Shown here piece after piece: positions 17,813-63,533 of a stretch of DNA of 64,000 nucleotides. Where the stretch lies: contig CAKRQU010000002.1 in the NCBI GenBank assembly GCA_934394585.1, forward strand, positions 51,874 to 115,873, written 5' to 3'. The notes below the pieces were generated by a model, which was not told where the DNA came from, ran no database searches, and worked only from the letters and a program-made list of their open reading frames with translations. This DNA is from an uncultured Eubacteriales bacterium. Its GTDB lineage: Bacteria > Bacillota > Clostridia > Oscillospirales > CAG-272. Numbering within the stretch: the first letter of the stretch is position 1; the number at the start of each line of letters is the position of its first letter. Made by a program: the position numbers and the translations under genes.

Positions 17813-18167
17813 AAAGTTACGTTTTCTCCCGCCGGATAACGTGGTCGCGCTTTTTACCGACCAAAATCGAGGGCTTTTAACCCTTCTTTGCCAACTGAAT
17901 ACCATATTAACGCAACATCAAAGGCGGGCGCAATGCGCCCGCCTTTGATACAGGGGTATTTATAATGAAGAGAATTTAGCTGTATTGATAAACCGAAAGC
18001 AAAAATCCTGCGCACAATAACACGCGCAGACAAAACATTCTGCCGTGTACGGCACGCAAGCCTCGCAAAGCGCACAAGAATGCCTATCTGCCGAGAATAC
18101 GCTTGCTACGCAGCGGCAATTCAGCAAGCAACCGTATTGCCGCCCTTCGACGCCTTACTCTGCAAAT

Positions 18168-27614: not shown

Positions 27615-27985
27615 GGGGCCGTAAAGGTTTCGACGGGGATTTTGCAGTACGGTAAGCGAGCGGAGATGCGGTACCTCCTTAAACAATCGCAAACTTAAAT
27701 ATAAACGCTAACAATAATAAAGTAGCAATGGCTGCCTAACGGCAGTGCCGCGGCTTTTCAGCCGCCCGTCGCTCCCTTGAGTATCACGGCTTGGGACTCG
27801 GCGTCATGCAGTGATGAACGTGAACGGAGATTTTTCTTGTTGTATCCGTCACGCATAAAACAGATACTTTTTATATAGCCTGTCTGTCGGCGATATAAAA
27901 AGGAATTTCAAAAGACATTCTGCGCTCGGAGAAAGCTGTATGAATAGGTTTTCGGACAGGGGTTCGACTCCCCTCGGCTCCACCA
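27615..27985 (+). ncRNA. ssrA: transfer-messenger RNA
   Basis: 5' GGGGCCGTAAAGGTTTCGACGGGG. 3' tRNA-like end GGACAGGGGTTCGACTCCCCTCGGCTCCACCA. Internal tag ORF ends ...AAC AAT AAT AAA GTA GCA ATG GCT GCC TAA (..NNNKVAMAA*, stop at 27737-27739). Confidence 0.9.
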
Positions 27986-28109: not shown

Positions 28110-28514
28110 TTAGCCGTTGTTTTCAGTGGTTCCGGAGGAAGCAGTTTTAGGTGTATAATCGTACTTACCTTCGGTAGTAGATTTTTTAAGCAAGCCATAC
28201 GTAGTATCTGCAGCAGCTGTGCCCTTTGTAGCTTTAGCATCAAACTGACCTTTTGTTACTGTGAAGTAGTAATCACCGGACTGAATTTTAATTGTAATGT
28301 TGGCGAGATCTTCAGCGTAAGACTTACCATCAGCATCGTTAGAAGCAAGCCAATCATAGTACATATTTCTTGCTTCCTGAAGAGCCTTGGACTCATTAGC
28401 CTTAGCAATTACATTAGAGAATGTAGGAATGAGTACTGCTGCGAGGATAGCGATCACAGCGATGACGATGACAAGCTCTACGATGGTAAAGCCGCGCTTT
28501 TTGTTGTTTTTCAT
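28110..28514 (-). CDS. prepilin-type (type IV pilin-like) protein, short form
   Basis: MKNNKKRG/FTIVELVIVIAVIAILAAVLIP has the class III signal: Gly-1, Phe+1, Glu+5 and a hydrophobic helix. 134 aa. AAGGAG RBS. Confidence 0.8.
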   Translation of the reverse strand: MKNNKKRGFTIVELVIVIAVIAILAAVLIPTFSNVIAKANESKALQEARNMYYDWLASNDADGKSYAEDLANITIKIQSGDYYFTVTKGQFDAKATKGTAAADTTYGLLKKSTTEGKYDYTPKTASSGTTENNG

Positions 28515-28734
28515 GGTTTTTGTCTCCTTGTTTAAAAAATATTTTTTTATATTTACGCTTTGCAGCAGTAAATACCGATGTGATTAAGAGCGGAAAACCC
28601 GTAGGTCGATGCGGGCGATGCCGACGCCTGAAACCCCTAACCGACGGCGGCACCGACCCGTACCATAAACGCGTTTACCTGCTCCGCTCTTCTTTCGAAA
28701 ATGCCGAAAAAGGCAATTTCCCGTGAAAAAATTT

Positions 28735-28781
28735 AAGCAGGCAAACATGCACGAACAAATTTCGTGCATGTTTGCCTGCTT
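28735..28781 (-). terminator. perfect 21-bp hairpin with T-run (minus-strand sense)
   Basis: AAGCAGGCAAACATGCACGAA-CAAAT-TTCGTGCATGTTTGCCTGCTT. On the minus strand it is followed by AAATTTTTT. Confidence 0.6.
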
Positions 28782-28846
28782 ATCAGGTACATATTTTATT
28801 ATTTAAAAGCGCGACAAAAGAACTACTTAGAAAGCAGCATGAATAG

Positions 28847-28905
<59 letters not shown>

Positions 28906-28910
28906 AAGCG

Positions 28911-28940
28911 ATTATACACAACCTATTCCTCCTTTGTCAA
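28911..28940 (-). promoter_or_regulatory. consensus sigma-A promoter (proximal) firing into the GACA tract
   Basis: Minus strand: TTGACA (28940-28935), 18 nt, TATAAT (28916-28911). The repeat starts 5 nt after the -10. Confidence 0.6.
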
Positions 28941-28972
28941 TATTTTTTGCAAAAATTTCTGATTGCATTACA

Positions 28973-29001
28973 ATTATACACCGCTATCATATTTTTGTCA
29001 A
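28973..29001 (-). promoter_or_regulatory. consensus sigma-A promoter (distal)
   Basis: Minus strand: TTGACA (29001-28996), 17 nt, TATAAT (28978-28973). Confidence 0.55.
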
Positions 29002-29187
29002 TATGTTTTTGTATATTTTTTCTGCATTTTTGTTTTTTTGTTTCTTTGCCCAAAGATAGAGTGTACTTTTGCGAAAAAGTACCAAAAAAAGTTTTTCTCT
29101 TGCCCAAGAGAACGGGCGACCACAGTCGCCCGCTTCTTTATCCTGCTTTTTTTAAAAAGAAAAACACACTATCCTCGCATGGAGGGA

Positions 29188-29219
29188 CAAAAAACGTCGG
29201 AAAAATTCCGACGTTTTTT
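29188..29219. terminator. bidirectional intrinsic terminator
   Basis: AAAAAACGTCGG-AAAAATT-CCGACGTTTTTT, directly after the CotF-like gene stop. Confidence 0.65.
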
Positions 29220-29223
29220 GTAT

Positions 29224-29466
29224 TTATACGGTGAATTTCTGCTTTACGGTCTGAATTTTATTCCGGTCGGCGGGAGTGGTCTGATACCAGCCCTTTGCCG
29301 CCATTTTTCCGTATACGTTATCCTGCATACCGAGGCTTTCGCCGAGCGCATCGCCGAAAGCTTTATGCACATTTGCCGTGCAGGATTCTATTGTACCGTG
29401 CATATACAGATCGCATACTCCTTTTTCGAGGAGCAGCAGAGTTTCCATTAGATTTCTGTCGTCCAT
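29224..29466 (-). CDS. spore coat protein, CotF-family-like
   Basis: 80 aa. DRNLMETLLLLEKGVCDLYMHGTIES...HKAF resembles the Coat_F domain. GGAGGGGG RBS. Confidence 0.6.
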   Translation of the reverse strand: MDDRNLMETLLLLEKGVCDLYMHGTIESCTANVHKAFGDALGESLGMQDNVYGKMAAKGWYQTTPADRNKIQTVKQKFTV

Positions 29467-29481
29467 TTTATTTCCCCCTCC

Positions 29482-29655
29482 TCAGAGCAAACCGAGAAAG
29501 CTCTGATATATTTTATTATGCTTTTCCAGCATCACAGATACGAGATTTTTAAATTCCGGGTCCTGTAAATTTGCCATTGCTTCATCGCATTTTGTTTTGA
29601 AATATTTTTCGTGTCCGAGCGCGTCTTCCACATAAAGAAGTTCTTTTTCAGTCAT
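29482..29655 (-). CDS. small spore-coat-associated protein (CotF partner)
   Basis: 57-aa ORF below the track cutoff: MTEKELLYVEDALGHEKYFKTKCDEAMANLQDPEFKNLVSVMLEKHNKIYQSFLGLL. GGAGGTG RBS. Ends 15 nt before the CotF-like start. Confidence 0.5.
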   Translation of the reverse strand: MTEKELLYVEDALGHEKYFKTKCDEAMANLQDPEFKNLVSVMLEKHNKIYQSFLGLL

Positions 29656-29733
29656 GATTTTTTCACCTCCGCAAATAGTTTGCCGTTTGCGCCGGACTTT
29701 TATGCGGGCAAAAAATGTTTTTTTGCGGATTTT

Positions 29734-30444
29734 TCAGCCGAGATGTATCATATCATACATGCCGTAAAGCCCGCGGCTTTTTCGTGAAATAAAATCAGCC
29801 GCCGCCACGGCACCGCGCGCAAAAACGCTTCTCTCATGCACATCGTGAGAAAAAACAAGTGTTTCGCGCCCGTTTGATATCATCACCTCATGATATCCGA
29901 TTATTTTTCCTATGCGCACGCTGGAAATGCCGATATCGCCGCGCTGTCTTTTGCCGTCGCCGTTTCGCCCGCATACTATGTGCCCGCCGCGCGAAAGCTC
30001 TCTCGCGAGCATAAGTGCCGTTCCGCTGGGCGCATCCGCTTTTGCCGCATGATGTTTTTCCGTTATTTCTATCTCGGCATCGGGAAAAAGCGCCGCTGCC
30101 GCGCGTGCCGTTTCCAGAAGTACCGCTGCGCCGAAAGACATGTTTTCCGAATAAAAAACGGGAATGACAAGCGCCGCTTTCTTTATGGCGGCATGCTCCG
30201 CTTCCGATTGTCCCGTGGTGGCTATCACGCATGGGATTTTTTTCGATACGGCAAAAGAAAGCGTTCTCTCTGTCGCGCTGTGTGAAGAAAAATCTATTAT
30301 CACATCCGCTTTGCCGCCGTAATCGTAAATATCGCGAAAATGCGATTTTATATCCACAGATGCCGCTATATGCATACCGTCGCGCAGATTTGCCGCCACT
30401 TCTCTGCCCATTCTGCCGCAGGCACCAACAAGTATTATTTCCAT
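29734..30444 (-). CDS. dapB: 4-hydroxy-tetrahydrodipicolinate reductase
   Basis: MEIILVGACGRMGRE NAD-binding N-terminus. ITEKHHAAKADAPSGTA matches the E(x)HHxxKxDAPSGTA motif. Confidence 0.8.
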   Translation of the reverse strand: MEIILVGACGRMGREVAANLRDGMHIAASVDIKSHFRDIYDYGGKADVIIDFSSHSATERTLSFAVSKKIPCVIATTGQSEAEHAAIKKAALVIPVFYSENMSFGAAVLLETARAAAALFPDAEIEITEKHHAAKADAPSGTALMLARELSRGGHIVCGRNGDGKRQRGDIGISSVRIGKIIGYHEVMISNGRETLVFSHDVHERSVFARGAVAAADFISRKSRGLYGMYDMIHLG

Positions 30445-30523
30445 AAGCGTTTCTCCCGTATTTTCGTTTTTCTTGTGATTTTTATTCATTCTATGCCGCT
30501 TTTGCGAAAATTGTGCCTGCGTA

Positions 30524-30552
30524 TTGACAATATACCGTATTTAATATATAAT
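30524..30552 (+). promoter_or_regulatory. consensus sigma-A promoter
   Basis: TTGACA-17 nt-TATAAT, 105 nt upstream of the HPrK-like gene. Confidence 0.55.
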
Positions 30553-30656
30553 ATAAATATAAAGCCGATCATATCGGTACAGCAAAAACAAGCGCCGCGA
30601 GCGTAAATCACGCGGCAACACGTTATAAAACCAAATTTTTTAAAAAACAACTGATT

Positions 30657-31382
30657 ATGAAATACAAAAACACATATCTTTTTGCCGATATTTCCGTGGA
30701 GGCTTCGTTTTCGCACGGCTTTTTCGAAAAGCAATGCCGCGATTACATCACAAAAAAGAAGCCCGAAATTTTCATAGATATAACGGAAAGCGATATAAAA
30801 AACGAGGCGGCACGTTCCGAGGACAAAGGTTTTTCCGACGGATATTTCGAATCGCTCGCTTTTTATCGCAGATTTTGCGATGCCGTGGCGGAAAAAGGAA
30901 TAATACTTTTTCACAGTTGCGCCATAGCGGTGGACGGTTTTGCTTATCTTTTCGCCGCGCCCTCCGGCACGGGAAAAAGCACCCACGCCATGCTGTGGAA
31001 ACAGCTTCTCGGCGACAGGGCGCATATAATAAACGGCGACAAGCCGCTCATACGCGTGGCGCCGGATAAAATCACCGTTTACGGCACGCCGTGGGACGGA
31101 AAAGAACACCAAAGCGAAAATACCTCTGCGCCGATAGCCGGTATATGTCTGCTTTCCCGAGGGGAGAAAAACGAAATTCACCGCATCGGCGCAAGCGAAG
31201 CCATGCCGCTTTTATACAGGCAGACATACAGGACAAGCTCGGCGGCGGGGCTTTCGTTTGTAATGAAAAATCTCACCGAAGCGGCTGAAAAAATACCTCT
31301 CTGGCAGCTTTACTGCAATATTTCGCCCGAAGCCGCGAAAACATCATACAACGCCATGACAGGATCGGAGAAAAGAAAATGA
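30657..31382 (+). CDS. HPr-kinase-related P-loop kinase-like protein
   Basis: FAAPSGTGKSTHAMLW P-loop in an HPrK C-terminal-like context. 241 aa. No obvious RBS. Confidence 0.6.
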   Translation: MKYKNTYLFADISVEASFSHGFFEKQCRDYITKKKPEIFIDITESDIKNEAARSEDKGFSDGYFESLAFYRRFCDAVAEKGIILFHSCAIAVDGFAYLFAAPSGTGKSTHAMLWKQLLGDRAHIINGDKPLIRVAPDKITVYGTPWDGKEHQSENTSAPIAGICLLSRGEKNEIHRIGASEAMPLLYRQTYRTSSAAGLSFVMKNLTEAAEKIPLWQLYCNISPEAAKTSYNAMTGSEKRK

Positions 31383-31648
31383 AACTCAAAGAAGGACTCA
31401 TCATTACGGAATGCGGCGACGAATACATCGCCGTAGCCGCGGGAGAAGCGGGAAAAGCCTTTTCGGGCATGATAAAAATGAATAAAACCGCGGGCTTCAT
31501 AGCAAAGCAGCTTTCTCTTTGCGATACGGATATCTGCGATATCGTAAAAGCCGTGCTCGACAAATACGATGTGGATGAGAAAACCGCGCGCGAAAGCGTG
31601 GAAAAAGTGATAGCGGCTTTTAAAAAGCAGGGACTTATCGAAAAATGA
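31379..31648 (+). CDS. PqqD-family (RiPP recognition element-like) protein
   Basis: 89 aa. Overall pattern (G.EYI.V......F.....N.TA.FI...L....T...I...V...Y.VD......V...I......GLI) fits the PqqD family. ATGA overlap upstream. Confidence 0.55.
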   Translation: MKLKEGLIITECGDEYIAVAAGEAGKAFSGMIKMNKTAGFIAKQLSLCDTDICDIVKAVLDKYDVDEKTARESVEKVIAAFKKQGLIEK

Positions 31649-33186
31649 ATGAATTATACAATACAGAATCGGCGCTCGAAAAAGTCGGATTTGTAATTCA
31701 TACGATAAAAGGCACCAGCATGATGCCTCTGCTCGACCAGAATAAAGACGCCGTGCATCTCGTGCCGATAAAGGACGAGCCGAAAGTGAACGATATCGTG
31801 CTTTTACGCCGCGAAAACGGCGCGCTCGTGCTTCACCGCATAATAAAAATAAAAGACGGCATTTTTATCATACGCGGCGACAACTGCATAAGCAGTGAAA
31901 ACGTAGAGCGCAGGCAGATAATCGCGCGCGCCGATGCCGTATATAAAGACGGAAAATACATTCCATGCGACGATAAAAAGCTTTTGAAATATGCGAAAAA
32001 GCTGCCGCGCAGGTGGTTTTTCAGATATGTTCGCGCGCTTCCGGGCGCTGTATTCGCCCACATTTTCAAAAAAGAGAAAAAGTCCGCCAAAAGCGAAACG
32101 CGCACTGTGCCGGAGGAATTCCGCTTTCTCATAAAGCTGATTTCCGCGGCGATAGCGGGAAATAAAGTGACGGAATATCCGCAGGATATTTCTTTTCGCA
32201 GGCTTTTCGACATAGCGAAAGCGCAAAGCGTAGCCGCCACGGTTTTTTCCGCGCTGGATAAAGACAAAGTTCCCGCGGAAATCTATGCCGAATTTGAAAA
32301 GCATTATAATGCAAATCTGCGCAGAGAAATCCTTTTTGATGCGGAGCGCGAAGCCATCCTTTCCGAAATGGAAATGGCGGGCATAGCTTATCTGCCGCTG
32401 AAAGGCATTATTTTGAAAAATTTCTATCCGAAGCGCGGCATGCGTGAATTTTCGGACAATGATATACTATGCGACGGCGAAAAATCGCATGAAATCGCGC
32501 AGATAATGAAATCGCGCGGATTTGAAGCCGCCCTGTCGGACGGCGTCGCCGATTCGTTTCATAAAAAGCCGATATACAATTTCGAAATGCACCGCGAGCT
32601 TTTCGACCGCGATTTTCCGGCATACGCGGGCTTTGAAAATATTATGCAAAGAGCCGTGCGCGACAGTGGAAATTTCGGCTATCGCATGACGGATGAGGAT
32701 TTTTATGTTTATCAGGCGGCTCATTTTTATAAGCATTATTTTATGGGCGGCACGGGGATACGCTCCTTTGCGGATTTCATGCTGACGGAAAAATACGTCG
32801 CCGAAAAATCCGGTTTTGACAAGAAATATGCGGAAAATCTCATTTCAGAGTGTTCTCTTTCCGATTTTCTTTCAGCCGTAAAAAAAGCGACGCATTCGCT
32901 TTTTTCTCAGGCAGATGCGGATGATGAGTTGCTTTTGTATATTTATTCCAGCGGCACATACGGCTCTCTCGAAAACTATGTAAAAAACGGAGTGAAAGAA
33001 AAAGGCAGATTCCGCTATGCTCTCTCGCGGATATTTATGCCGTATCGCTTTATGAAGCTGCGCTTTCCGCTGCTTTCAAAGCTCCCATTTCTCCTGCCGT
33101 TTTTCTGGATAGCGAGATTTTTCATTTTCATATTCAGTGGAAAATACCGCAAAGCCACGCTGGACGCAATAAAGAAATCAAAATAA
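31645..33186 (+). CDS. fusion of S24/S26-type peptidase-like domain and NTP_transf_5-type nucleotidyltransferase
   Basis: N-terminus IKGTSMMPLL...LHRIIKI...IRGDN matches the Ser/Lys peptidase pattern. Central AYLPLKGIILKNFYPKRGMREFSDNDILC resembles the uncharacterised nucleotidyltransferase family. ATGA overlap upstream. Confidence 0.6.
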   Translation: MNELYNTESALEKVGFVIHTIKGTSMMPLLDQNKDAVHLVPIKDEPKVNDIVLLRRENGALVLHRIIKIKDGIFIIRGDNCISSENVERRQIIARADAVYKDGKYIPCDDKKLLKYAKKLPRRWFFRYVRALPGAVFAHIFKKEKKSAKSETRTVPEEFRFLIKLISAAIAGNKVTEYPQDISFRRLFDIAKAQSVAATVFSALDKDKVPAEIYAEFEKHYNANLRREILFDAEREAILSEMEMAGIAYLPLKGIILKNFYPKRGMREFSDNDILCDGEKSHEIAQIMKSRGFEAALSDGVADSFHKKPIYNFEMHRELFDRDFPAYAGFENIMQRAVRDSGNFGYRMTDEDFYVYQAAHFYKHYFMGGTGIRSFADFMLTEKYVAEKSGFDKKYAENLISECSLSDFLSAVKKATHSLFSQADADDELLLYIYSSGTYGSLENYVKNGVKEKGRFRYALSRIFMPYRFMKLRFPLLSKLPFLLPFFWIARFFIFIFSGKYRKATLDAIKKSK

Positions 33187-33191
33187 ATGTA

Positions 33192-33225
33192 AAAAGCAGG
33201 AAAACCTCTCGGTTTTCCTGCTTTT
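33192..33225. repeat. 34-bp direct repeat, left copy (itself a bidirectional terminator hairpin)
   Basis: AAAAGCAGGAAAACCTCTCGGTTTTCCTGCTTTT, identical to 34165-34198. Confidence 0.9.
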
Positions 33226-33315
33226 TGTTTGCGATGTGCTTTGTCCATGCGGGACAAAGGCGTACTTTTTTAAAAAAGTACCAAAAAGTTACTTTGTTCC
33301 ACGCGAGGGAACGAA

Positions 33316-34152
33316 GGTGTACTTTTGCGTGACCAAAAGTACCAAAAGTCAAAAAGAGGAAGGCATTCCTCTTTTCATCTCCTTCTGTCGCCTCGCGGCG
33401 ACCAGTGCGAACATACTGCCCAGACAGTCCGACCGTAGACTAAACCGGAAGTATGGTTCAAACCCCCGCACTTAACACGGGCTTTAGTCTGTTCAAGCCA
33501 GAACTAAACCTTCCCCCAACTCGATGTCCATCAAGCCATGCTTGCTCCGTCGGAGTTTAGTCTACAGTGGGAAGCATATCAAAAGCCATGGCGGGAGCCA
33601 ATTCACCCCGTCGAATCTGCTCGCTTTTTGCGGCGTACTTTGTTCGCACGCGCGGTATGGCTGATGATATGCGGAGAGATAGACAGAAGTTTTTTTGATT
33701 TGCTATATATAGCACATACTTGCCGCGCATTGCTTTCCGCGGCTAACTCGACGGGGTGCGAGGTAGTTTGCAAAGGAGGGCGAGGAGCCTTCCTTTGATG
33801 ACTTTTGCCGCGCTTTTTGTCAGTAAAAAGCGCGACCCCCGTCCTCCCCGTAGGGGATAAGAAACTTTTCCCGCTGACTCCGTCTCGGCGACGCCGTTCA
33901 GAGGTGGCTTCGCCACCCTGAACCCTCCTCTTTGTCAGTAAAAAGCGCGACCTCGTTTCTCGGTGGAGAAAGAAACTTGCACGGGCGACCGCAGTCGCCC
34001 GCCCCATCTTGGCAAAGAGAAACAATCCCTCACCCGACTTCGTCGGGAGCTCTGACCCTTTCTCGGCGAAGCCAAGCAACGTGCTTTGCACATTGCTTAA
34101 TTCCATTGCATAAGGAAATTTTTTGGTACTTTTGGTCACACAAAAGTACACC
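33316..34152. mobile_element. candidate non-autonomous (MITE-like) element bounded by 32-bp terminal inverted repeats
   Basis: GGTGTACTTTTGCGTGACCAAAAGTACCAAAA (33316-33347) matches the reverse complement of 34121-34152 at 31/32 positions. 837 bp with no credible ORF. Confidence 0.4.
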
Positions 34153-34164
34153 CTCCCCCTACAC

Positions 34165-34198
34165 AAAAGCAGGAAAACCTCTCGGTTTTCCTGCTTTT
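34165..34198. repeat. 34-bp direct repeat, right copy (bidirectional terminator hairpin)
   Basis: Identical to 33192-33225. Lies 4 nt from the stop of the epimerase gene. Confidence 0.9.
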
Positions 34199-34202
34199 AT
34201 TT

Positions 34203-35387
34203 TCAGTATTTTCTCCACACCATTTTATCCACTATGCCGGTATACGAACGGATTATCTTTACCACCTTGGTCGATACGTTTTCTTCCGTATAGTCGGGCA
34301 CGGGAATGCCGAGATCACCGCATTTATTCATTTCCACGGCGGTTTCCACTGCGCCGAGCAGATTTTTTTCATCTATCCCCGCGAGGATAAAGCAACCTTT
34401 TTCCATCGCCTCGGGGCGCTCGGTGGATGTTCTTATGCACACGGCAGGAAAAGCCTTTCCTATCGAGGTAAAAAACGAACTTTCTTCCGGCAATGTGCCG
34501 CTGTCGGAAACCACGGCAAAAGCATTCATCTGTAAATTATTGTAATCATGAAAACCGAGCGGCTCATGACGCGTCACGCGCTTATCGAGCACAAATCCGC
34601 TTTCATCAAGCCGTTTTTTGGAGCGCGGATGACAGGAATAAAGCACAGGCATATCATATTTTTTTGCAAGAGCGTTTATCGCGGAAAAAAGACTGGTGAA
34701 ATTCTTTTCCGTATCTATATTTTCTTCTCTGTGCGCCGAAAGGAGAATATAATTTTTCTTTTTCAGCCCGAGCCGCGATAAAATATCGCTTTTTTCTATA
34801 CTTTCCAGATTTGAATGGAGCACCTCCGCCATGGGAGAACCTATTACAAATGTGCGTTCCTTCGGCATGCCGCATTCCGCAAGATATCTGCGGGCATATT
34901 CGCTGTATGCCATATTCACATCGGAAATGATATCCACTATGCGCCTGTTTGTTTCCTCGGGCAGACATTCATCTTTGCATCTGTTCCCCGCTTCTATATG
35001 AAAAACAGGTATGTGCAGGCGCTTTGCCGCTATGGCGGAAAGGCAGGAATTTGTATCGCCGAGTATCAGCATGGCATCGGGTTTTACCGCCGACATCAGC
35101 TTATATGAGCAATTTATGATATTTCCCACCGTGGCGCCGAGATCATCGCCCACGGCATTCATATATACATCGGGAAGAGCCAGATCGAGATCGCGGAAAA
35201 ATATCCCGTTCAGATTGTAATCATAATTCTGCCCCGTATGTGCCAGAAGCGTATCGAAATATTTTTCGCATTTTTTTATCACTGCGCAAAGACGTATTAT
35301 CTCCGGACGCGTGCCGACTATAATAAGCAGCTTCAGCCTGCCGTCGTTTTTGAAACTTATATCCGAATAATCCGTTTTCATATCCAT
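34203..35387 (-). CDS. fnlC: UDP-N-acetylglucosamine 2-epimerase (non-hydrolysing), FnlC/CapG-like
   Basis: 394 aa, WecB-family pattern (GTRPEIIRL, LGDTNS, HIEAGNR, SDSG). Same operon as the CapE/CapF-like genes. Confidence 0.8.
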   Translation of the reverse strand: MDMKTDYSDISFKNDGRLKLLIIVGTRPEIIRLCAVIKKCEKYFDTLLAHTGQNYDYNLNGIFFRDLDLALPDVYMNAVGDDLGATVGNIINCSYKLMSAVKPDAMLILGDTNSCLSAIAAKRLHIPVFHIEAGNRCKDECLPEETNRRIVDIISDVNMAYSEYARRYLAECGMPKERTFVIGSPMAEVLHSNLESIEKSDILSRLGLKKKNYILLSAHREENIDTEKNFTSLFSAINALAKKYDMPVLYSCHPRSKKRLDESGFVLDKRVTRHEPLGFHDYNNLQMNAFAVVSDSGTLPEESSFFTSIGKAFPAVCIRTSTERPEAMEKGCFILAGIDEKNLLGAVETAVEMNKCGDLGIPVPDYTEENVSTKVVKIIRSYTGIVDKMVWRKY

Positions 35388-35389
35388 TT

Positions 35390-37114
35390 TCAGCCCTCCA
35401 GAAATATATTTTCGATAGAATTTATTTCATTTTCCGTCACGCCGCAGGAAAGCAGATATGAACGCGTCTGCTCCTTCAGCGTGGCTCCCTCATAATCGCG
35501 AAGCCCCTCGCGCATAGCGCGGATTTTGCCGAGAGTCATATTTGAAATACCGTATTCCTTATAGCAATCCTCCTCGGAAAGTCCCAGCATGGCTTCCAGA
35601 AGGAAGCATACTGTGCCGGTCCTGTCGCATCCGTAAGTGCAATGCAGATATACGGGATAATTTGAAGCATCGGCAAAATCGGAAAATATTTCATGTATTT
35701 TCTGCTTTCCGCTCTCGGTGAAAATCGCCATATACTGCGCCATGTCATAATATTTGTGTACCACGTTTTCGCCCAGCATATTTTTCCCGTTTACGGAAGG
35801 CGAACGCAGATCCATATCCGTATTTATGCCGAAGCTCTCGCGCATATCTTTTATTCCCGCTTCGGTAATGTGATAACCTTTTTCGATAGCCCCGTCAAGC
35901 TCTGTGCCGCGTAAAAGAAGTCCCTGACTTATTCTTCTGCCGTCAGTGGTTTTCCAGCCGCCTATATCGCGCACATTCGATATTCCGTCTATCGTGAGAA
36001 AACGCGGTGTCTCGGATGTTCTGAAAAATCCGTTTTTCGACAATGTTCCGTCGGACGTGTATGCCGTCACCCGATAATAATAAAATGTGCCCGCGCGCAG
36101 GTGAGAAAACGAAAATTCGCCTGCATTTTCGGCTATTTCATAGCTTGCAGCTCCCGTAAAAGAGGAGTTTTCCGCCACTTCCACGGTATAACGCAGAACA
36201 TTCTGCTCCGCGCCCGGTCCGTTTACGGAAAATCTCAGCGTCACTTTGTTTTCAAGATCCGTGCGCTCCCAATTCTGCGTGAAATGATACGGGATGACAT
36301 TGTCATACTTTCCGCTCATCAGATTGAGCTCGAGATACTGCCTTATTGCCTTTACCGTGATGAACGCATTTTCATTGTCGTTTATTACGACCAATTCCGC
36401 AGGCTTGGTTGTGGCGGTGGTTTCTGTAGTCGCTGTGGTAGTCGCCGTGGTTGTCGTCGCTGTGGTGGTAGTCGCCGTGGCTGTCGTCGCTGTAGTGGTA
36501 GTCGCCGTGGTTGTCGTCGCTGTGATGGTAGTCGCCGTGGTTGTCGTCGCTGTAGTGGTAGTCGCTGTGGTGGTCGCGACAGTTGTGGTTTCCGTGGGCG
36601 TCGTAGGAACCGTAGTTGCAGTTGTTTCCGTCGGTACGGTCGGAACCGTAGTTGCAGTTGTTTCCGTCGGTATCGTAGGCATTGTGACTGTCGTAGTCGT
36701 AGCCGTCGTTGATTTTGTTGTCGGTATCGTTTTTGCAGTCGATGTCGTTTCCGTAGTCGATGTAATCTCTGTCGTAGCCGTGGTTTCCGTAGCCGACGTG
36801 GTAGTCGCGACAGTCGTATCGGATGCAGTCGGCGTGGTGCTTGTCACCGTCGTTGCTGTTTCCGTAGTCGCTGTTGTCCCTGTAGCCGTAGTCGCTGTTG
36901 TCCCTGCAGCCGTGGTTACTGTAGTCGCCGTAGTCGCGGTTTCATTGGTTGTCGTGGTCGCGGTAACCGCTGTGGTATCATCTACGCCGCTTTTTCGTGT
37001 GGGTACAATCATAAAAGCTATCGAAATCATCAGCACTGCCGCGAGCGCCACAGTCATCAGTCTGTTTTTGGTTTTGAGTCGGGTATCTGCGTTTGTCTTG
37101 CCTTTGTTGCTCAT
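35390..37114 (-). CDS. membrane-anchored Thr/Ala-rich protein with C-terminal CX5R tyrosine-phosphatase-family domain
   Basis: N-terminal TM helix, then about 230 aa of T/A repeats, then ISNVRDIGG and HCTYGCDRTG (a C-x5-R-T P-loop, Y_phosphatase3-like). Confidence 0.65.
   Translation of the reverse strand: MSNKGKTNADTRLKTKNRLMTVALAAVLMISIAFMIVPTRKSGVDDTTAVTATTTTNETATTATTVTTAAGTTATTATGTTATTETATTVTSTTPTASDTTVATTTSATETTATTEITSTTETTSTAKTIPTTKSTTATTTTVTMPTIPTETTATTVPTVPTETTATTVPTTPTETTTVATTTATTTTATTTTATTITATTTTATTTTATTATATTTTATTTTATTTATTETTATTKPAELVVINDNENAFITVKAIRQYLELNLMSGKYDNVIPYHFTQNWERTDLENKVTLRFSVNGPGAEQNVLRYTVEVAENSSFTGAASYEIAENAGEFSFSHLRAGTFYYYRVTAYTSDGTLSKNGFFRTSETPRFLTIDGISNVRDIGGWKTTDGRRISQGLLLRGTELDGAIEKGYHITEAGIKDMRESFGINTDMDLRSPSVNGKNMLGENVVHKYYDMAQYMAIFTESGKQKIHEIFSDFADASNYPVYLHCTYGCDRTGTVCFLLEAMLGLSEEDCYKEYGISNMTLGKIRAMREGLRDYEGATLKEQTRSYLLSCGVTENEINSIENIFLEG
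36400..36975. repeat. in-frame degenerate tandem repeats encoding the Thr/Ala-rich linker
   Basis: Reiterated approximately 30-nt units such as GTCGCCGTGGTTGTCGTCGCTGTGGTGGTA. Protein repeats include TTATTTTA and PTVPTETTATTV. Confidence 0.7.
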
Positions 37115-40691: not shown

Positions 40692-40808
40692 TTATATAAA
40701 ATTTCTCCGAAATCAAATCAGCCGGATTTTCTCCGTTGCCCGCCGCACGCCGCGTGGAGGCTTTGATTTTGTGCGGCTTCCGACACGCTTTCGCGTGCCG
40801 GATTTCAA

Positions 40809-42080
40809 TTATTCCAGTATAAGCTTGCCGTCCGCGCCGAACGTGTATGTTCCCGCGGGGAGGAGTTTATTTGTATATGTGATATGCTTTGTGCAGTTCT
40901 TCACCGCTGTGAGGGTAGCACCGGAAATGTAATAATAGCTTCCGTCCGTATCCTTTACGAGACCTGCGTAAGTTGGTACATCATCCACATAGTAGCGGAT
41001 TTCACCGTCGGCGTCTTTTACTATGCCCTGCTTCATCACCATCTTGCCGTCCGCGCCGAACGTATATGTTCCTGCGGGCAGGAGTCTGTTTGTATAAGTG
41101 ATATACTTCGAGCAGTTCTTCACCGCCGTGAGAGTAGCGCCGGAAATGTAATAGTAGTTTCCGTCCGTATCCTTTACGAGACCTGCGTAAGTGGGTACAT
41201 CGTCCACATAGTAGCGGATTTCACCGTCGGCGTCTTTTACTATGCCCTGTTTCATCACCATCTTGCCGTCCGCGCCGAACGTGTATGTTCCCGCGGGCAG
41301 GAGTCTGTTTGTATAAGTGATATACTTCGAGCAGTTCTTCACCGCCGTGAGAGTAGCGCCGGAAATGTAATAGTAGTTTCCGTCCGTATCCTTTACGAGA
41401 CCTGCGTAAGTGGGTACATCGTCCACATAGTAGCGGATTTCACCGTCGGCGTCTTTTACTATGCCCTGTTTCATCACCATCTTGCCGTCCGCGCCGAACG
41501 TGTATGTTCCCGCGGGCAGGAGTCTGTTTGTATAAGTGATATACTTCGAGCAGTTCTTCACCGCCGTGAGAGTAGCGCCGGAAATGTAATAGTAGTTTCC
41601 GTCCGTATCCTTTACGAGACCTGCGTAAGTGGGTACATCGTCCACATAGTAGCGGATTTCACCGTCGGCGTCTTTTACTATGCCCTGTTTCATCACCATC
41701 TTGCCGTCCGCGCCGAACGTGTATGTTCCCGCGGGCAGGAGTCTGTTTGTATAAGTGATATACTTCGAGCAGTTCTTCACCGCCGTGAGAGTAGCGCCGG
41801 AAATGTAATAGTAGCTGCCGTCCGTATCCTTTACCAGACCCGCGTAAGTGGGTACATCGTCCACATAGTAGCGGACTTCGCCATCGGCGTCTTTTACTAT
41901 GCCCTGTTTCATCACCATTCTGCCGTCCGCGCCGAACGTGTATGTTCCTGCGGGGAGAAGCTTATTTGTATATGTTATATGCTTTGTGCAGTTCTTTACG
42001 GCTCTGAAATCGTTTCCGCTGATATAGAGATATCTGCCGTCGGCATCTTTTACCAGACCCGCATAAACAGCCATGCCGTC
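40809..42080. repeat. 219-bp in-frame tandem repeats (5 full units plus a degenerate one)
   Basis: Units phase at 41261, 41480 and 41699. 41261-41479 and 41480-41698 are identical by eye, and neighbouring units differ at a few positions. Confidence 0.9.
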
Positions 42081-59100: not shown

Positions 59101-60993
59101 TCAGGCTTTATATTTAGCGTCTACATTACCGTTAAATGTACCGCCGGTAATAAATCCTGTGCAGTTCTCGCTGTAAACAGCGTTGGAGCCGCCGTTGATA
59201 GTTGTAAATGTACCGCCGGAAACAGCCAGTTTCACTTTTGCAATAGAGTCTTCATCGTTATTCTGGGGATTGCTCTGGTGAAGTGCGGTGTAGCCCTTGA
59301 TTGTGCCGCCTGTAACAGTAAGCTCTGTGGGTAGCTTCGTAGTGTGCTGTGCCACTGCAATGCCGGCGCCTATTGTAGTTGCGCCATTGCCATTGGATTC
59401 GACTTCTGTCGGAACACCGTTACCTGTAATTGTGCCGCCGGTAACATTGAGCTTGCCTGCGCGAAGCTCGATACCTGTGTGACCGCCTGTGATCGTGCCG
59501 CTAGTGGTATACTCGGCATAGCCTGCGCCGTATATACCGTGACCTGTGCCGGTAAGAACAGCGGATTCATAAATATTGACTTTAATTGCGGGATTTACAC
59601 TAATATTCGCTCCGTTCACATAAAGACCAGCTCCGACACTACCGCTGGCATCATTTACGCCAGTCAACGTGCCGTAAACATTTATTACAAGAGCATAATC
59701 GTTGCCACTGTATTGACTTTTGGGGTTAACCAATATGCCTGACCACCCCTTGAGTGTCACATCCTTGTCAATGGTCACAACAGCAGGATTTGAAGCCTTA
59801 TGATCTACCACAATCGGAGAATAATTGGAAACCGCTTCCTGCATCGTGCCCTTGCCTGTAACTGTCAGTTCGCCCATATACAATCTAATGAATTTATTTT
59901 CATTGAATGTAATAGTGTGACCGTTCAAATCCAAGGTGAGTTTCAAGCTTGAATTGTTCATCTTCGCACCGTCAGATGTGAAATCTCTCAATACAGTAAT
60001 GGTATCACCGCTTTTCGCACCATATACAGCAGAGGACAGTGAGAAATAATTCTTGCCGTTTACGCTTGCAACAGGAGCATCAAAAGTTATATCAAAAGTT
60101 GAAAAACTTGCTGTATTGAAAGTTACCTTACCGCTGCTCTGGTAGGAACTGCTGATCAGCGAGCCCTCGTGGTAAACCTTCACATTTGACAGGTCTTCGC
60201 CAACACCAATTTCGACCGTAAAAGTTGTGCCCGCATTAGCAGTAACAACGTTTCCGTCCTTATCGAGCAGCTTGATATCATAAGAATAGTACACTTCATT
60301 GTTGCCGACTTTTACCACACTGCTTGATTTTGGAGTAAGTTTGAATGTATATTCACCATCAGCCAGAGATCCTGCGGGAGCAGTCAAAGCAGCTTCCGCG
60401 CGATTTACCGTGAATGTCGTTGCTTTCGTAGAATCAACAGTCTTGGTCACATTTACATTAAACCCTGTTCCTGCGCCGCCTGTAAAGCCTGCTGCTATAT
60501 CATAATCTGCAAAAACAGCCATTTCTTCCCGCTTGAAACCGAGCGTAGCTACAGTGCCGCTTTCTCCGTTGAGCGTGTCGCTCTTACGCCAGTCAGCCAT
60601 TTCTCCTGTAAAGTTTGTAAGCGCACTGGCTTTAACGAGATTTTCGCATATATTTCTTGCTTTATCTGCAAAAGTAGCGCCATCTCCGAGCTGTACAGGG
60701 TTGTTTATATAAGCAACTACTTTGCTCTCGCTCGCATCATATCCGTGTATATATGCTTCGTCGCCTTTTTTCGTCACGATTACGAGGTCTGCCGCGTCGT
60801 CGCCGCCGCTGAGTATGTTGGCGAGCATTTCCGTCACGAGGTTTTTCGCATCGGAAAGAGCCGCAGCTTCGTTTGCTTTTTTCACGAGGTTTGCATAAGT
60901 CGGGATCAGCACAGCAGCAAGTATGGCGATGACTGCGATGACGATGACTAATTCAACAATCGTGAAACCGCGCTTTTGATTGTTTCTTTTCAT
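59101..60993 (-). CDS. prepilin-type N-terminal domain fused to a large beta-helix-like adhesin domain
   Basis: MKRNNQKRG/FTIVELVIVIAVIAILAAVLIP class III signal. About 580 further residues rich in G/T/N with reiterated TGG.I.G / VTGGTI segments, suggesting a parallel beta-helix. Confidence 0.75.
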   Translation of the reverse strand: MKRNNQKRGFTIVELVIVIAVIAILAAVLIPTYANLVKKANEAAALSDAKNLVTEMLANILSGGDDAADLVIVTKKGDEAYIHGYDASESKVVAYINNPVQLGDGATFADKARNICENLVKASALTNFTGEMADWRKSDTLNGESGTVATLGFKREEMAVFADYDIAAGFTGGAGTGFNVNVTKTVDSTKATTFTVNRAEAALTAPAGSLADGEYTFKLTPKSSSVVKVGNNEVYYSYDIKLLDKDGNVVTANAGTTFTVEIGVGEDLSNVKVYHEGSLISSSYQSSGKVTFNTASFSTFDITFDAPVASVNGKNYFSLSSAVYGAKSGDTITVLRDFTSDGAKMNNSSLKLTLDLNGHTITFNENKFIRLYMGELTVTGKGTMQEAVSNYSPIVVDHKASNPAVVTIDKDVTLKGWSGILVNPKSQYSGNDYALVINVYGTLTGVNDASGSVGAGLYVNGANISVNPAIKVNIYESAVLTGTGHGIYGAGYAEYTTSGTITGGHTGIELRAGKLNVTGGTITGNGVPTEVESNGNGATTIGAGIAVAQHTTKLPTELTVTGGTIKGYTALHQSNPQNNDEDSIAKVKLAVSGGTFTTINGGSNAVYSENCTGFITGGTFNGNVDAKYKA

Positions 60994-61266
60994 AAATCTT
61001 TTTCTCCTTTAATAATAAAAATTTTATTTACATTTCCCCATTGCCGGGGTAAATACCATAGTTATTTCGCGGCGACCGTGCCGCAGGGCAAACCCTCCAC
61101 CGCTTCGCGGTCTGTGCCGCGCAAGGCAAACACCGTAAAATGACAATCCCTCAGTCGCCTGCGGCGACAGCTCCCTTTGCACAAAGGAGCCGAGCAACGT
61201 GCTTCGCACATTGCTTAATTTCCTTACGCAATGGTGCCAAAATTGGGCGAAAATCCGCAAAAAATT

Positions 61267-61312
61267 AAGCAGGCAGAGCTGCACGAAAAAATTCGTGCAG
61301 CTCTGCCTGCTT
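61267..61312 (-). terminator. perfect 21-bp hairpin with T-run (minus-strand sense), second copy
   Basis: AAGCAGGCAGAGCTGCACGAA-AAAA-TTCGTGCAGCTCTGCCTGCTT. On the minus strand it is followed by AATTTTTT. Confidence 0.6.
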
Positions 61313-61374
61313 ATCAGTTAAATATATTTAATTTTTGTGCGACAAAAGAATCGCTTACAAAGCGATATAAATAG

Positions 61375-61453
<79 letters not shown>

Positions 61454-61458
61454 AAGCG

Positions 61459-61488
61459 ATTGTACATGACCCATTCCCCCTTTGTCAA
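61459..61488 (-). promoter_or_regulatory. consensus-like sigma-A promoter (proximal) firing into the GACA tract
   Basis: Minus strand: TTGACA (61488-61483), 18 nt, TACAAT (61464-61459). The repeat starts 5 nt later. Confidence 0.6.
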
Positions 61489-61531
61489 GCGTTTTTTGCA
61501 AAAATTGTCATTATGTCTTCCGACAACACAC

Positions 61532-61730: not shown

Positions 61731-63533
61731 TTATGCTCTTTTTCTCTTACGGATGATGAATACAACTACAGTCGCGCCCACTCCGAGAGCAACGACACCG
61801 ATGATGATCCAGACCCATACATTGGTTGAGCCGGTCGGGGGAGAAACGATCCCCGCTTCCACCTTGAATTTGGTGGTGGCATCACCGCTTGCCGTACGAA
61901 TGGTAAGGGTGTGTTCGCCTTCTGCCAGCGTTGCGAGGTAGCTTGCTTTCAGCTGAATGATGATGCTGCCTTCGCGCTTTTCATAATTCTCGGCAGTAAT
62001 GGTCTTGCCGTCTACCAGCACTTCGACAAAGTCGGAGAATGCCGCGTCTGACTTGAAGGTCAGTCCGTTTTCATCGCCCTTGCTCCACTTGGCATTTCTG
62101 CCGTCTGTGATGCTCGGTGCGAGCTTGTCGATGGAAACGGTCGTCTTTTTGTAACCGCAGACCTTGCATTCCTCATGCTTTGCTCCGGCTTCGGTGACAG
62201 TGGCTTCCTTGTCGATCTTCCATTCAAAAGCGTGATCTGCTTCGTCGCCTTTCGTTTTGCAGACCGTGCATTCGTGCCAGTGCTTACTGCCGTTGCTTAC
62301 CCATACGGTTCCCCAGCTGTGTGCCAGTGCCTCACCGGACTCAAAGGTTTCCGTTCCCTTTTCACCGCAAGAGCAGGAGTAGTAGTATACTGCCTTTGCC
62401 GTACAGGTTGCCGCACTCTTGAGGTATTTCACGTCGGTATTCTTTTCGGTGTAGCTGTGAATATGACCGGTTGCCTCTTTGATTACATATCCGCAAACCG
62501 TACAGGTCTGAGGTGTTGTCTCTGTTGCTGCCGCACCGGGTGTATGAGCCGCTTCGTCCTTCTTATTTCCGCAGGCGGAACACTCGTGCCAGTGCTTTGA
62601 GCTGTTCTTCGACCACGTGGTCCTGTAAGTATGAGCCTCGAGATCGCCGGACTCAAAAGTTTTCGTTCCCTTTTCACCGCAAGAGCAGGAGTAGTAGTAT
62701 ACTGCCTTTTCCGTGCAGGTAGCAGCTGACTTGAGATATTTTTCGTTCGTATTCTTCTGATTGAAGTTGTGCGTATGACCAAGAGCGGCTTTTATGACAT
62801 ATCCGCAGATGGTGCAAGTCTGAGGTGTTGTCTCGGTTGCTGCCGCACCGGGCGTATGTGCCGCTTCGTCTTTCTTGTTTCCGCAGACGGAACATTCGTG
62901 CCAGTGCTTGCTCTTATCTTTCGACCACTCGGTCTTGTAGTTATGTGCCGCAAGCTCGCCGTATTTCTGACCGCAGATGGTACAGGTTGCTTTGTCCTTG
63001 CAGGTTGCCGTGCCGCCCGTGTGGTCGGACGTCTTCTTGCCGCAGACATCGCAGTTGTGATCCTTGTTTGCGTCTGCGTGCGCCGCTACGTCCTTTTTAT
63101 CTCCGCAGACGGAGCACTCATGCCAATGGTTTGCACTGTCTGTCGACCACTCGGTCTTGTATACGTGACCTGCGAGGTCGCCGTATTTCTGACCGCATAT
63201 TGAGCAGGTTGCTTTTTCCTTGCAGGTTGCCGTGCCGCCCGTGTGGTCGGACGTCTTCTTGCCGCAGACATCGCAGTTGTGATCCTTGTTTGCGTCTGCG
63301 TGCGCCGCTACGTCCTTTTTATCTCCGCAGACGGAGCACTCATGCCAATGGTTTGCACTGTCTGTCGACCACTCGGTCTTGTATACGTGACCTGCGAGGT
63401 CGCCGTATTTCTGACCGCATATTGAGCAGGTTGCTTTTTCCTTGCAGGTTGCCGTACCGCCCGTGTGGTCGGACGTCTTCTTTCCGCAGACATCGCAGAA
63501 GTGATCGTTGTCATTGTCTTTGTGCGCTGCCAA
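61731..63533 (-). CDS. Cys/His-rich repeat surface protein with C-terminal SPxTG-type sorting signal; N-terminus unresolved
   Basis: Reiterated modules H.C.VCGKK...C.EKATC.ICG...W(S/T)....HWHECS.CG. C-terminus VSPPTGSTN, then a hydrophobic helix, then RKRKRA. The only in-frame start is TTG 63533, while the frame stays open to 63650. Confidence 0.6.
   Translation of the reverse strand: MAAHKDNDNDHFCDVCGKKTSDHTGGTATCKEKATCSICGQKYGDLAGHVYKTEWSTDSANHWHECSVCGDKKDVAAHADANKDHNCDVCGKKTSDHTGGTATCKEKATCSICGQKYGDLAGHVYKTEWSTDSANHWHECSVCGDKKDVAAHADANKDHNCDVCGKKTSDHTGGTATCKDKATCTICGQKYGELAAHNYKTEWSKDKSKHWHECSVCGNKKDEAAHTPGAAATETTPQTCTICGYVIKAALGHTHNFNQKNTNEKYLKSAATCTEKAVYYYSCSCGEKGTKTFESGDLEAHTYRTTWSKNSSKHWHECSACGNKKDEAAHTPGAAATETTPQTCTVCGYVIKEATGHIHSYTEKNTDVKYLKSAATCTAKAVYYYSCSCGEKGTETFESGEALAHSWGTVWVSNGSKHWHECTVCKTKGDEADHAFEWKIDKEATVTEAGAKHEECKVCGYKKTTVSIDKLAPSITDGRNAKWSKGDENGLTFKSDAAFSDFVEVLVDGKTITAENYEKREGSIIIQLKASYLATLAEGEHTLTIRTASGDATTKFKVEAGIVSPPTGSTNVWVWIIIGVVALGVGATVVVFIIRKRKRA
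63063..63506. repeat. two near-identical 222-bp (74-aa) in-frame tandem units; diverged units flank them
   Basis: The 222-nt period is shown by duplicated antisense ORF ends at 63203 and 63425 and by the duplicated protein block DH.CDVCGKKTSDHTGGTATCKEKATCSICGQKYGDLAGHVYKTEWSTDSANHWHECSVCGDKKDVAAHADANK. Confidence 0.85.

Follow-up and report, generated by a model that had tools for sequence, protein, structure and literature searches.

The window analyzed here is the whole stretch of 64,000 nucleotides from the genome of an uncultured Eubacteriales bacterium (contig CAKRQU010000002.1, positions 51,874 to 115,873 of the forward strand). Two pilin genes are located on its minus strand. The big pilin gene (59101..60993) encodes a type IV pilin-like protein of 630 aa with the N-terminus KRGFTIVEL... 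and the Pfam domain PF07963 (N_methyl), and the small pilin gene (28110-28514) encodes a protein of 134 aa. The leader of the big pilin gene contains a module of three hairpins, a second copy of which lies in a composite element at 33.2-34.2 kb. An earlier note, made from the sequence alone, had described this module, and the sequences quoted in it are present at their plus-strand coordinates. The pilin open reading frame (ORF) is on the minus strand; the quotations are thus antisense, and the region described as upstream, at 61075-61150, is downstream in the mRNA.

The leader copy of the module (61143-61220) aligned to the element copy (34022-34102) with 76.5% identity over 81 nt (blastn, E about 1e-10). 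The local-alignment score of the two copies was 68, compared to 28 or less for shuffled sequences, and the 28-nt pattern of hairpin 2 occurred exactly twice in the window and in none of 100 shuffles. All parts of the module are assigned to the minus strand. The leader copy consists of the 11-mer ACAATCCCTCA followed by hairpin 1, GTCGCC-TGC-GGCGAC (61143..61168, with hairpin 1 at 61154-61168), a middle hairpin that reads GCTCCCTTTG-CAC-AAAGGAGC on the plus strand (61170..61190), and hairpin 2 (61192..61216), which is the hairpin of the repeat unit described below, with 10-11 bp, a GAA loop and a U.G wobble on the minus strand. The element copy (34022..34102) consists of the 11-mer (34022-34032), hairpin 1 in the form CCCGAC-TTC-GTCGGG (34033-34047), the unit flank (34061-34073) and hairpin 2 (34074-34098). 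Three of the six pairs of hairpin 1 differed on both sides between the two copies and none was broken, and the hairpin was flanked in both copies by the identical 11-mer and the identical AGCTC. Five stems of hairpin 1 were found: GTCGCC/GGCGAC, CCCGAC/GTCGGG, GCCGCC/GGCGTC (with one mismatch), GTCAGC/GCTGAC and GTCGC/GCGAC. The middle hairpin occurred in three structure-preserving variants, at the loci L139, L076 and L137 (loci fetched for comparison are numbered with L). In hairpin 2 of both copies, a plus-strand C.A mismatch corresponds to a U.G wobble on the minus strand, and the minus strand folded better. The 18 nt past hairpin 2 (61216-61234) matched 34103-34120 in the reverse complement only, with the loop of a small hairpin flipped; in L165/L224 this stretch has the orientation of the leader.

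The pilin leader at L005 aligned with the window over 60466-61120 (86%) and 61257-61385 (95%), and the segment 61121-61256 was missing from it. Therefore, the module is located inside an insert of ~136 nt (61121..61256, minus strand). This insert was also absent from the leader of the small pilin gene and from L249/L250. It is repeat-derived, as it matched repeat copies at L165/L224 (77% over 100 nt) and L139 (98% over 49 nt). The module had been taken for an intrinsic part of a structured pilin leader, a view that does not agree with the absence of the insert from three homologous pilin leaders. The GC-rich helices next to it (61058..61120, minus strand), which had been counted as part of the shared element, are native to the leader, because they were ~90% conserved in L005, which is without the module, and matched no repeat locus.

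The leader module alone had a predicted folding energy of ~-36 kcal/mol, and it was predicted to fold as independent hairpins, apart from the ribosome-binding site. The insert would thus add three autonomous stable hairpins to the sense strand of the 5' untranslated region and leave the ribosome-binding site untouched. On the minus strand between the terminator-like hairpin of the leader and the pilin ATG, no promoter-like site was found. As there is no sigma-70-like promoter in this interval, the insert is expected to form part of the pilin transcript. Most likely, it is a passenger that may alter mRNA stability or read-through, and nothing points to a pilin-specific regulation.

The composite element at 33.2-34.2 kb

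The second copy of the module lies within 973 bp of inserted DNA (33226..34198, no strand assigned), which consists of a 939-bp ORF-less composite element and the second copy of a 34-bp terminator hairpin. The locus L002 was 100% identical to the window over 28993-33225 and 34165-36635, lacked the 973 bp and contained a single hairpin, AAAAGCAGGAAAACCTCTCGGTTTTCCTGCTTTT, at the junction. The window, L001 and L003 all carry the 939 bp together with the second hairpin copy. The 34-bp direct repeat (left copy 33192..33225, right copy 34165-34198, no strand assigned) is a bidirectional terminator hairpin between a convergent 513-aa gene and an epimerase gene, and as it was duplicated, each convergent gene retains a terminator. 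The element and the leader insert are both found beside a terminator, which is duplicated on both sides of the element and located just before the insert in the leader. A further fragment of the repeat family (17843-17872, GGTCGCGCTTTTTAC...) lies just past an intrinsic terminator, like the two larger copies.

The left terminal inverted repeat of the element (33313..33347, plus strand) contains the motif GTACTTTTG-loop-CAAAAGTAC-CAAAA. The right copy is at 34121-34155 (minus strand), and the two repeats, of 33-35 nt, are 94% identical. A second repeat unit (33877..33932, minus strand) consists of the flank TCTCGGCGACGCC and a 13-bp hairpin, GTTCAGAGGTGGC-TTC-GCCACCCTGAAC, where an A.C mismatch on the plus strand corresponds to a G.U wobble on the minus strand. 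Copies of this unit with 94-100% identity were found in many metagenome contigs with no other similarity to the window. The ORFs within the element were mechanical only (79-187 aa), a 167-aa gene called in the L001 element had no Pfam hit, and no recombinase or transposase was found within 4-5 kb of either window copy. No tRNA-like gene was detected in the 28-35 kb region (ARAGORN). Orthologous epimerase loci of related species had a different synteny and were uninformative on the insertion site.

The predicted fold of the 840-nt element had an energy of -374 kcal/mol on the minus strand and -349 kcal/mol on the plus strand (z about -13 for both), with the two ends of the element paired over ~32 bp. 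For the left core, which is conserved in 13 distinct copies from several genera, the consensus fold was -26.4 kcal/mol on the minus strand and -13.9 kcal/mol on the plus strand; RNAalifold gave a weak consensus with few compensatory pairs. No convincing promoter was found for the element, including at its minus-strand start. A short relic with a motif-like inverted repeat and the hairpin CGGGCGAC-CACA-GTCGCCCG (29058..29133, plus strand) is located ~0.55 kb from the small pilin gene.

The dispersed unit family and its terminal motif

Hairpin 2 and its flank belong to a dispersed unit of ~49 nt. On the plus strand, the unit reads CCCTGTCTCGGCGACGCC, a 25-nt imperfect hairpin and AATTCC; on the minus strand of the window it reads GGGGAATT, an 11-bp hairpin with one conserved U.G wobble, and GGCGUCGCCGAGACAGGG. 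The family was first encountered in genome loci of Candidatus Apopatosoma intestinale and an uncultured Ruminococcus sp. A metagenome scan with the flank and loop yielded at least 120 loci, and human-gut assemblies predominated among the matches listed. Units were found single, in both orientations, and as tandem arrays of two to six identical copies with a period of 49-50 nt. Altogether, 204 units were counted in 159 clusters, with 135 intergenic. Units located downstream of a co-oriented gene numbered 64, compared to 37, which gave p about 0.009 for non-independent data. An excess of this kind might reflect a role akin to that of REP elements (see below) past gene ends. The arrays are at L194 (6540-6790), L144 (9859-10027), L120 (129-275) and L186 (4768-4850), the only labelled source being human gut; the L120 array lies directly upstream of a consensus promoter.

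The full module (11-mer, hairpin 1, spacer, hairpin 2 and the AATT... stretch) was present in L165/L224, where, like at the big pilin gene, it precedes a start codon of the same orientation. At L139, hairpin 1 and the middle hairpin were 98% identical to the leader copy, and further variants of the module were found at L076 (a goat-gut Oscillospiraceae) and L137. Modules were combined differently in the window, L113, L047, L055 and L165. An exact scan of species-representative genomes and viral contigs with the hairpin-2 sequence of the window gave 0 matches, the loci from the genome collection all stemming from the scan with the terminal motif (see below), and neither the element nor the terminal motif had a blastn match in phage and plasmid collections. 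Neighbor-ORF clustering of the at least 111 genome loci (see below) and at least 120 metagenome loci revealed no real recurrent protein near the copies. Nothing relevant turned up in the literature on gut-Clostridia repeats or on the motif sequence.

To assess covariation, 62 distinct 52-nt units were aligned without gaps in the minus-strand orientation of the window. Standard pairs made up 99.3% of the cells of the 11-bp helix, and nine of the 11 pairs showed double changes. There were 125 double-change cells, compared to 35 in shuffles, and the covariation score was 0.536, compared to 0.200 for shuffled data, with none of 500 shuffles reaching it. When the partner was slid by 1-3 columns, pairing fell to 11-57%. 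This behavior, with the slid controls failing, is that of a structured RNA or a single-stranded hairpin. Pair 15-27 was U.G in 57 of the 62 units, which is a C.A mismatch on the opposite strand. Because this wobble is kept and the minus strand folds better, the hairpin is strand-specific, and the constraint therefore appears to act on the single-stranded hairpin of one strand. The structured strand in the window is the pilin sense strand and the G-rich strand.

The central claim of the earlier note, that a module with covarying hairpins is shared by a pilin leader and a putative mobile element, was thus borne out by the blastn match, the paired double changes and the empty-site polymorphism. 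The note had also considered that the module might be a simple dispersed repeat whose random substitutions do not preserve pairing. It is indeed a dispersed repeat, with at least 120 loci, but its substitutions are not random and keep the pairing, as indicated by the covariance test on the 62 units.

The terminal motif of the element had a much wider distribution. A scan of species-representative genomes found it at at least 111 loci, where we estimate fewer than one by chance. These loci belong to Clostridia, Bacteroidaceae, Alistipes, Balneola and Gammaproteobacteria, and to the Gracilibacteria, Peribacteria, Levybacteria and Saccharibacteria of the candidate phyla radiation. The copies are intergenic, often several per genome and often at contig ends. 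The motif sites in the window are 33318-33350, 34121-34155, 33262-33288 and 29062-29092, and the other loci are L006-L116. In its full form, GTACTTTTG-loop-CAAAAGTAC-CAAAA-X', the loop pairs with X', and this form was found near letter-for-letter in Clostridia, Bacteroidota, Balneolales, Gammaproteobacteria and several lineages of the candidate phyla radiation. The loop was complementary to the bases just past CAAAA at 66% of positions, compared to 32% in shuffles. The stem had the compensatory variants GTTC...GAAC and CTAC...GTAG, and the motif is followed by a hairpin that varies in length. Inverted pairs of the motif, 420-830 bp apart, occurred at 11 loci, including one Alistipes genome. 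The motif was rare in viral contigs (eight matches). No gene family accompanied it, and no Rfam family was found at 18 motif loci. An ORF for an IS200-like or RAYT (REP-associated tyrosine transposase)-like Y1 transposase, MPKTYSSVWLHIVWSTK..., was noted ~1.7 kb from the motif at L009 and L093, both of Balneola. In a tblastn search with a RAYT-like ORF against 1.87 Mb of fetched loci and the window, these two loci were the only ones with such an ORF. A sigma-54 or Bacteroidetes promoter does not fit the motif in spacing and taxon range, and the consensus of parS or dif-like sites is not matched.

The upstream regions of the pilin genes

In the sense of the mRNA, both pilin genes are preceded by promoters, an (AGAC)n repeat, a small hairpin, a 20-bp terminator-like hairpin, a variable stretch, an AT-rich segment and the ribosome-binding site. 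The big pilin gene has the promoters TTGACA-17-TATAAT (61560-61532) and TTGACA-18-TACAAT (61488-61459); for the small pilin gene, only the counterpart of the second of these was read, via alignment. The intrinsic-terminator-like hairpin (61266..61313, minus strand) has 20 bp followed by UUUUUU and is located, in mRNA sense, just upstream of the 136-nt insert. It is kept at 28782-28734, L005 and L249/L250 with a covarying upper stem, and the base of its stem, AAGCAGGCA/UGCCUGCUU, is conserved in the pilin upstream regions. The same architecture of promoter, repeat and terminator occurs upstream of related pilins of other organisms, at L005 and L249/L250. The distance from the terminator to the ribosome-binding site is ~75 nt in L249, ~150 nt in L005, ~215 nt in the small pilin gene and ~270 nt in the big pilin gene.

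This pilin-associated region, with promoters, the repeat, a 7-bp hairpin, an AU-rich stretch and the 20-bp intrinsic terminator, spans 61257-61490 and 28727-28945 in the window, 2690-2850 in L005 and ~1180-1420 in L249/L250. It looks like an attenuator or a small RNA that precedes the pilin gene. No Rfam family matched the region with its terminator. The (AGAC)n repeat is a perfect tetranucleotide repeat in minus-strand sense, directly downstream of a consensus promoter in both pilin genes, with ~20 copies at 61375-61453, ~15 at 28847-28905, ~9 in L249/L250 and ~2.5 in L005. Located where the pilin leader begins, this hypervariable simple repeat could make expression graded or phase-variable.

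The big pilin itself is a fusion. Its N-terminal ~28% was 82-83% identical to P0030 and P0031, which are pilins with other C-termini, and its C-terminal ~71% was ~70% identical to P0002-P0028, which are proteins without an N_methyl Pfam hit. A 600-aa ORF (61731-63533, minus strand) directly upstream of the pilin promoter region encodes long repeats rich in CxxC and HWHEC and a C-terminal membrane anchor. At the gathering threshold, Rfam matched only a transfer-messenger RNA (tmRNA) and an HDV-like ribozyme in the whole window, both elsewhere than the module copies. The tmRNA gene (27615-27985, plus strand, 186.5 bits), which has smpB just upstream, is separated by ~125 nt from the 3' end of the small pilin gene. 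The ribozyme (40711-40777, minus strand, Rfam HDV-F-prausnitzii, 55.7 bits) adjoins a 219-nt tandem array (40824-41996, 5.4 copies). At E up to 5-10, Rfam gave nothing credible for the element, the leader and a motif copy from the candidate phyla radiation, the hits on the leader being spurious miRNA-type matches to the terminator hairpin.

Known systems and interpretation

Repetitive extragenic palindromes (REP) and the bacterial interspersed mosaic elements (BIME) built from them occur in Enterobacteria and Pseudomonas, where they form REPIN doublets and are moved by RAYT Y1 transposases. The family described here resembles them in its short imperfect palindromes with many extragenic copies, often past gene ends and between convergent genes, in stems that vary with pairing kept, in strand-specific G.T/G.U mismatches and in mosaic clusters without an own ORF. 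Its 25-nt imperfect hairpin and its unit, cluster and intergenic counts agree with a REP as an extragenic imperfect palindrome of 20-40 nt in many copies. However, the 5' foot GT[AG]G of a REP was absent, with AATT / GGCG instead of a GTAG/GTGG tetranucleotide at the feet of the hairpin. Also unlike in REP, the conserved part is the 18-19-nt flank GGCGUCGCCGAGACAGGG, identical 49-nt units form direct tandem arrays, the host is a member of Clostridia, and a RAYT-like gene was found, within the fetched loci and the window, only near the Balneola copy of the motif.

The BOX elements of Streptococcus pneumoniae (boxA-boxB(n)-boxC) are similar in organization, with no apparent sequence relationship and with a different host and GC content. 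They share distinct hairpin modules, a central module repeated in tandem in variable number (45 nt in BOX, ~49 nt here; one to six units in L194, L144, L120 and L186), inverted repeats at the composite ends, intergenic positions that include the 5' regions of surface or competence genes, and a Firmicutes host. In contrast to BOX, the composites are larger (0.4-0.9 kb), a 34-bp terminator hairpin is duplicated, and the terminal motif crosses phyla. Miniature inverted-repeat transposable elements (MITEs) such as Correia in Neisseria and RUP in the pneumococcus are likewise ORF-less, under 1 kb, bounded by terminal inverted repeats, polymorphic between strains and inserted into transcribed leaders, where they can alter expression. 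The element has 33-35-nt inverted repeats of 94% identity, no real ORF and a length under 1 kb, and it is polymorphic between L002 and the window. Unlike in MITEs, this polymorphism involves duplication of a 34-bp hairpin and not a short target-site duplication of 2-10 bp; the content is mosaic, and units also exist alone. No parent element with the same ends was found, nor any recurrent neighbor protein or phage or plasmid match. The palindrome-associated transposable elements (PATEs) derived from IS200/IS605, and other elements that are mobilized via single-stranded DNA hairpins, share strand-specific imperfect hairpins, the lack of a usual target duplication and a structured G-rich strand, taken as the lagging-strand template. 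However, they have no terminal inverted repeats and need a Y1 transposase; none was found nearby here, and no conserved cleavage tetranucleotide was found. Two further classes were considered: no hit to the D5/D6 domains of group II introns was obtained, and the tandem units are identical, without the variable spacers of a CRISPR array.

Taken together, the module is probably a fragment with three hairpins from a modular repeat family that has multiple copies and no genes and occurs in uncultured gut Clostridia (Oscillospiraceae-like metagenome-assembled genomes), with the leader copy as a passenger. The family is best read as a new REP/BIME- or BOX-like modular repeat, of the kind of dispersed structured intergenic repeats. 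The ~49-nt units also occur together with other hairpin modules in composite elements of 0.4-0.9 kb, which end in terminal inverted repeats of ~33 nt. Selection would act on the single-stranded hairpin of one strand, most likely in a single-stranded DNA intermediate of spread or maintenance that is recognized by its shape and conserved flank and handled by an enzyme encoded elsewhere in the genome. A secondary effect at the RNA level would be expected wherever a copy is transcribed.

Several points weigh against this interpretation. The loop and two closing pairs of the hairpin were preset in the retrieval pattern, and the filter demanded the four outer pairs; this selection bias spares only the five middle pairs, four of which show double changes. 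Many of the metagenome contigs may derive from the same species, and the counts are not independent. L005 and L249 are homologous and not orthologous loci, and the insertion into the leader thus rests on a comparison of paralogous or heterologous leaders. Ordinary transposons make short target duplications, from which the duplication of a whole 34-bp hairpin differs, and the empty allele could have arisen by deletion between the two 34-bp repeats. No transposase or recombinase that would spread the repeats was found beside the window copies. RNA and single-stranded DNA are indistinguishable from the sequence, as G.T is tolerated in both.

According to a possible though rather unlikely explanation, the hairpins are selected in RNA as transcript stabilizers, processing or exonuclease barriers or insulators, a function proposed for REP/BIME in 3' untranslated regions and for BOX elements, with the leader copy modulating the stability of the pilin mRNA or read-through past the terminator. 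The wobble conserved on the pilin sense strand, the excess of units downstream of co-oriented genes, the L165/L224 copy before a co-oriented start codon and the expected presence of the insert in the pilin transcript are all consistent with it. However, the 973-bp element, which lies between two bidirectional terminators without a convincing promoter of its own, may see hardly any transcription, a single element can hold units of both orientations, and the orientation bias is modest and comes from contigs that are not independent. The composite element of ~840 nt could also be the gene of a large structured non-coding RNA on the minus strand, with the module as a domain and the leader copy as a fragment. 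The stability of the predicted fold (z about -13), the ~32-bp pairing of the ends, the better minus-strand fold of the left core in 13 copies from several genera and the pairing of the motif loop with downstream bases argue for such a gene. It is nevertheless improbable, because the element is dispensable, as indicated by its presence or absence between identical strains; in addition, there is no promoter at its minus-strand start, its content is mosaic with sizes of 420-830 bp, its core has a weak consensus with few compensatory pairs, and Rfam has no match. A further reading, suggested by the wide range of the motif and in our view doubtful, is that the composite elements form an undescribed class of mobile, strand-asymmetric structured nucleic acid. 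In that case, a widespread trans-acting enzyme could recognize the motif, or the motif could belong to an RNA that is guide-like or processes itself, and the hairpin units would be cargo.

A cis-regulatory leader specific to the pilin, such as a riboswitch or attenuator whose structure the mobile element merely shares, is very unlikely. The conserved and unusual upstream region with its promoters, (AGAC)n and terminator would suit it, and so would the precedent of pilA1 of Clostridioides difficile, which is controlled by a cyclic diguanylate (c-di-GMP)-II riboswitch and resembles the big pilin gene in its long leader with an intrinsic terminator. In contrast to pilA1, the leader here has no match to RF01786 or any riboswitch, and relaxing the threshold to an E of 5 brought up no riboswitch family. 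The module is not a conserved feature of pilin leaders; it is missing from those of the small pilin, L005 and L249/L250, where the rest of the leader is conserved, and it lies beside unrelated genes in many contigs. Finally, a fortuitous or low-complexity similarity of two GC-rich hairpin regions might be suspected from the mere two copies in the window and their 76.5% identity, but the E value, the absence of the 28-nt pattern from the shuffles and the dozens of homologues elsewhere leave it a negligible chance.

Identification as part of a probable repeat family keeps annotators from taking a dispersed repeat for a pilin leader or riboswitch. It further accounts for assembly breaks at such sites in these gut Clostridia; the contig behind L004, for example, ends inside the pilin leader. 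Moreover, it defines, in abundant uncultured gut bacteria, a structure-constrained repeat family with strand asymmetry, tandem amplification and strain-level insertion polymorphism by terminators. The family provides a handle for strain typing, and it may cause the expression of surface genes, such as those of type IV pilins, to vary. If the cross-phylum terminal motif turns out to be an RNA or the site at which a common enzyme acts, it would be of wider interest.

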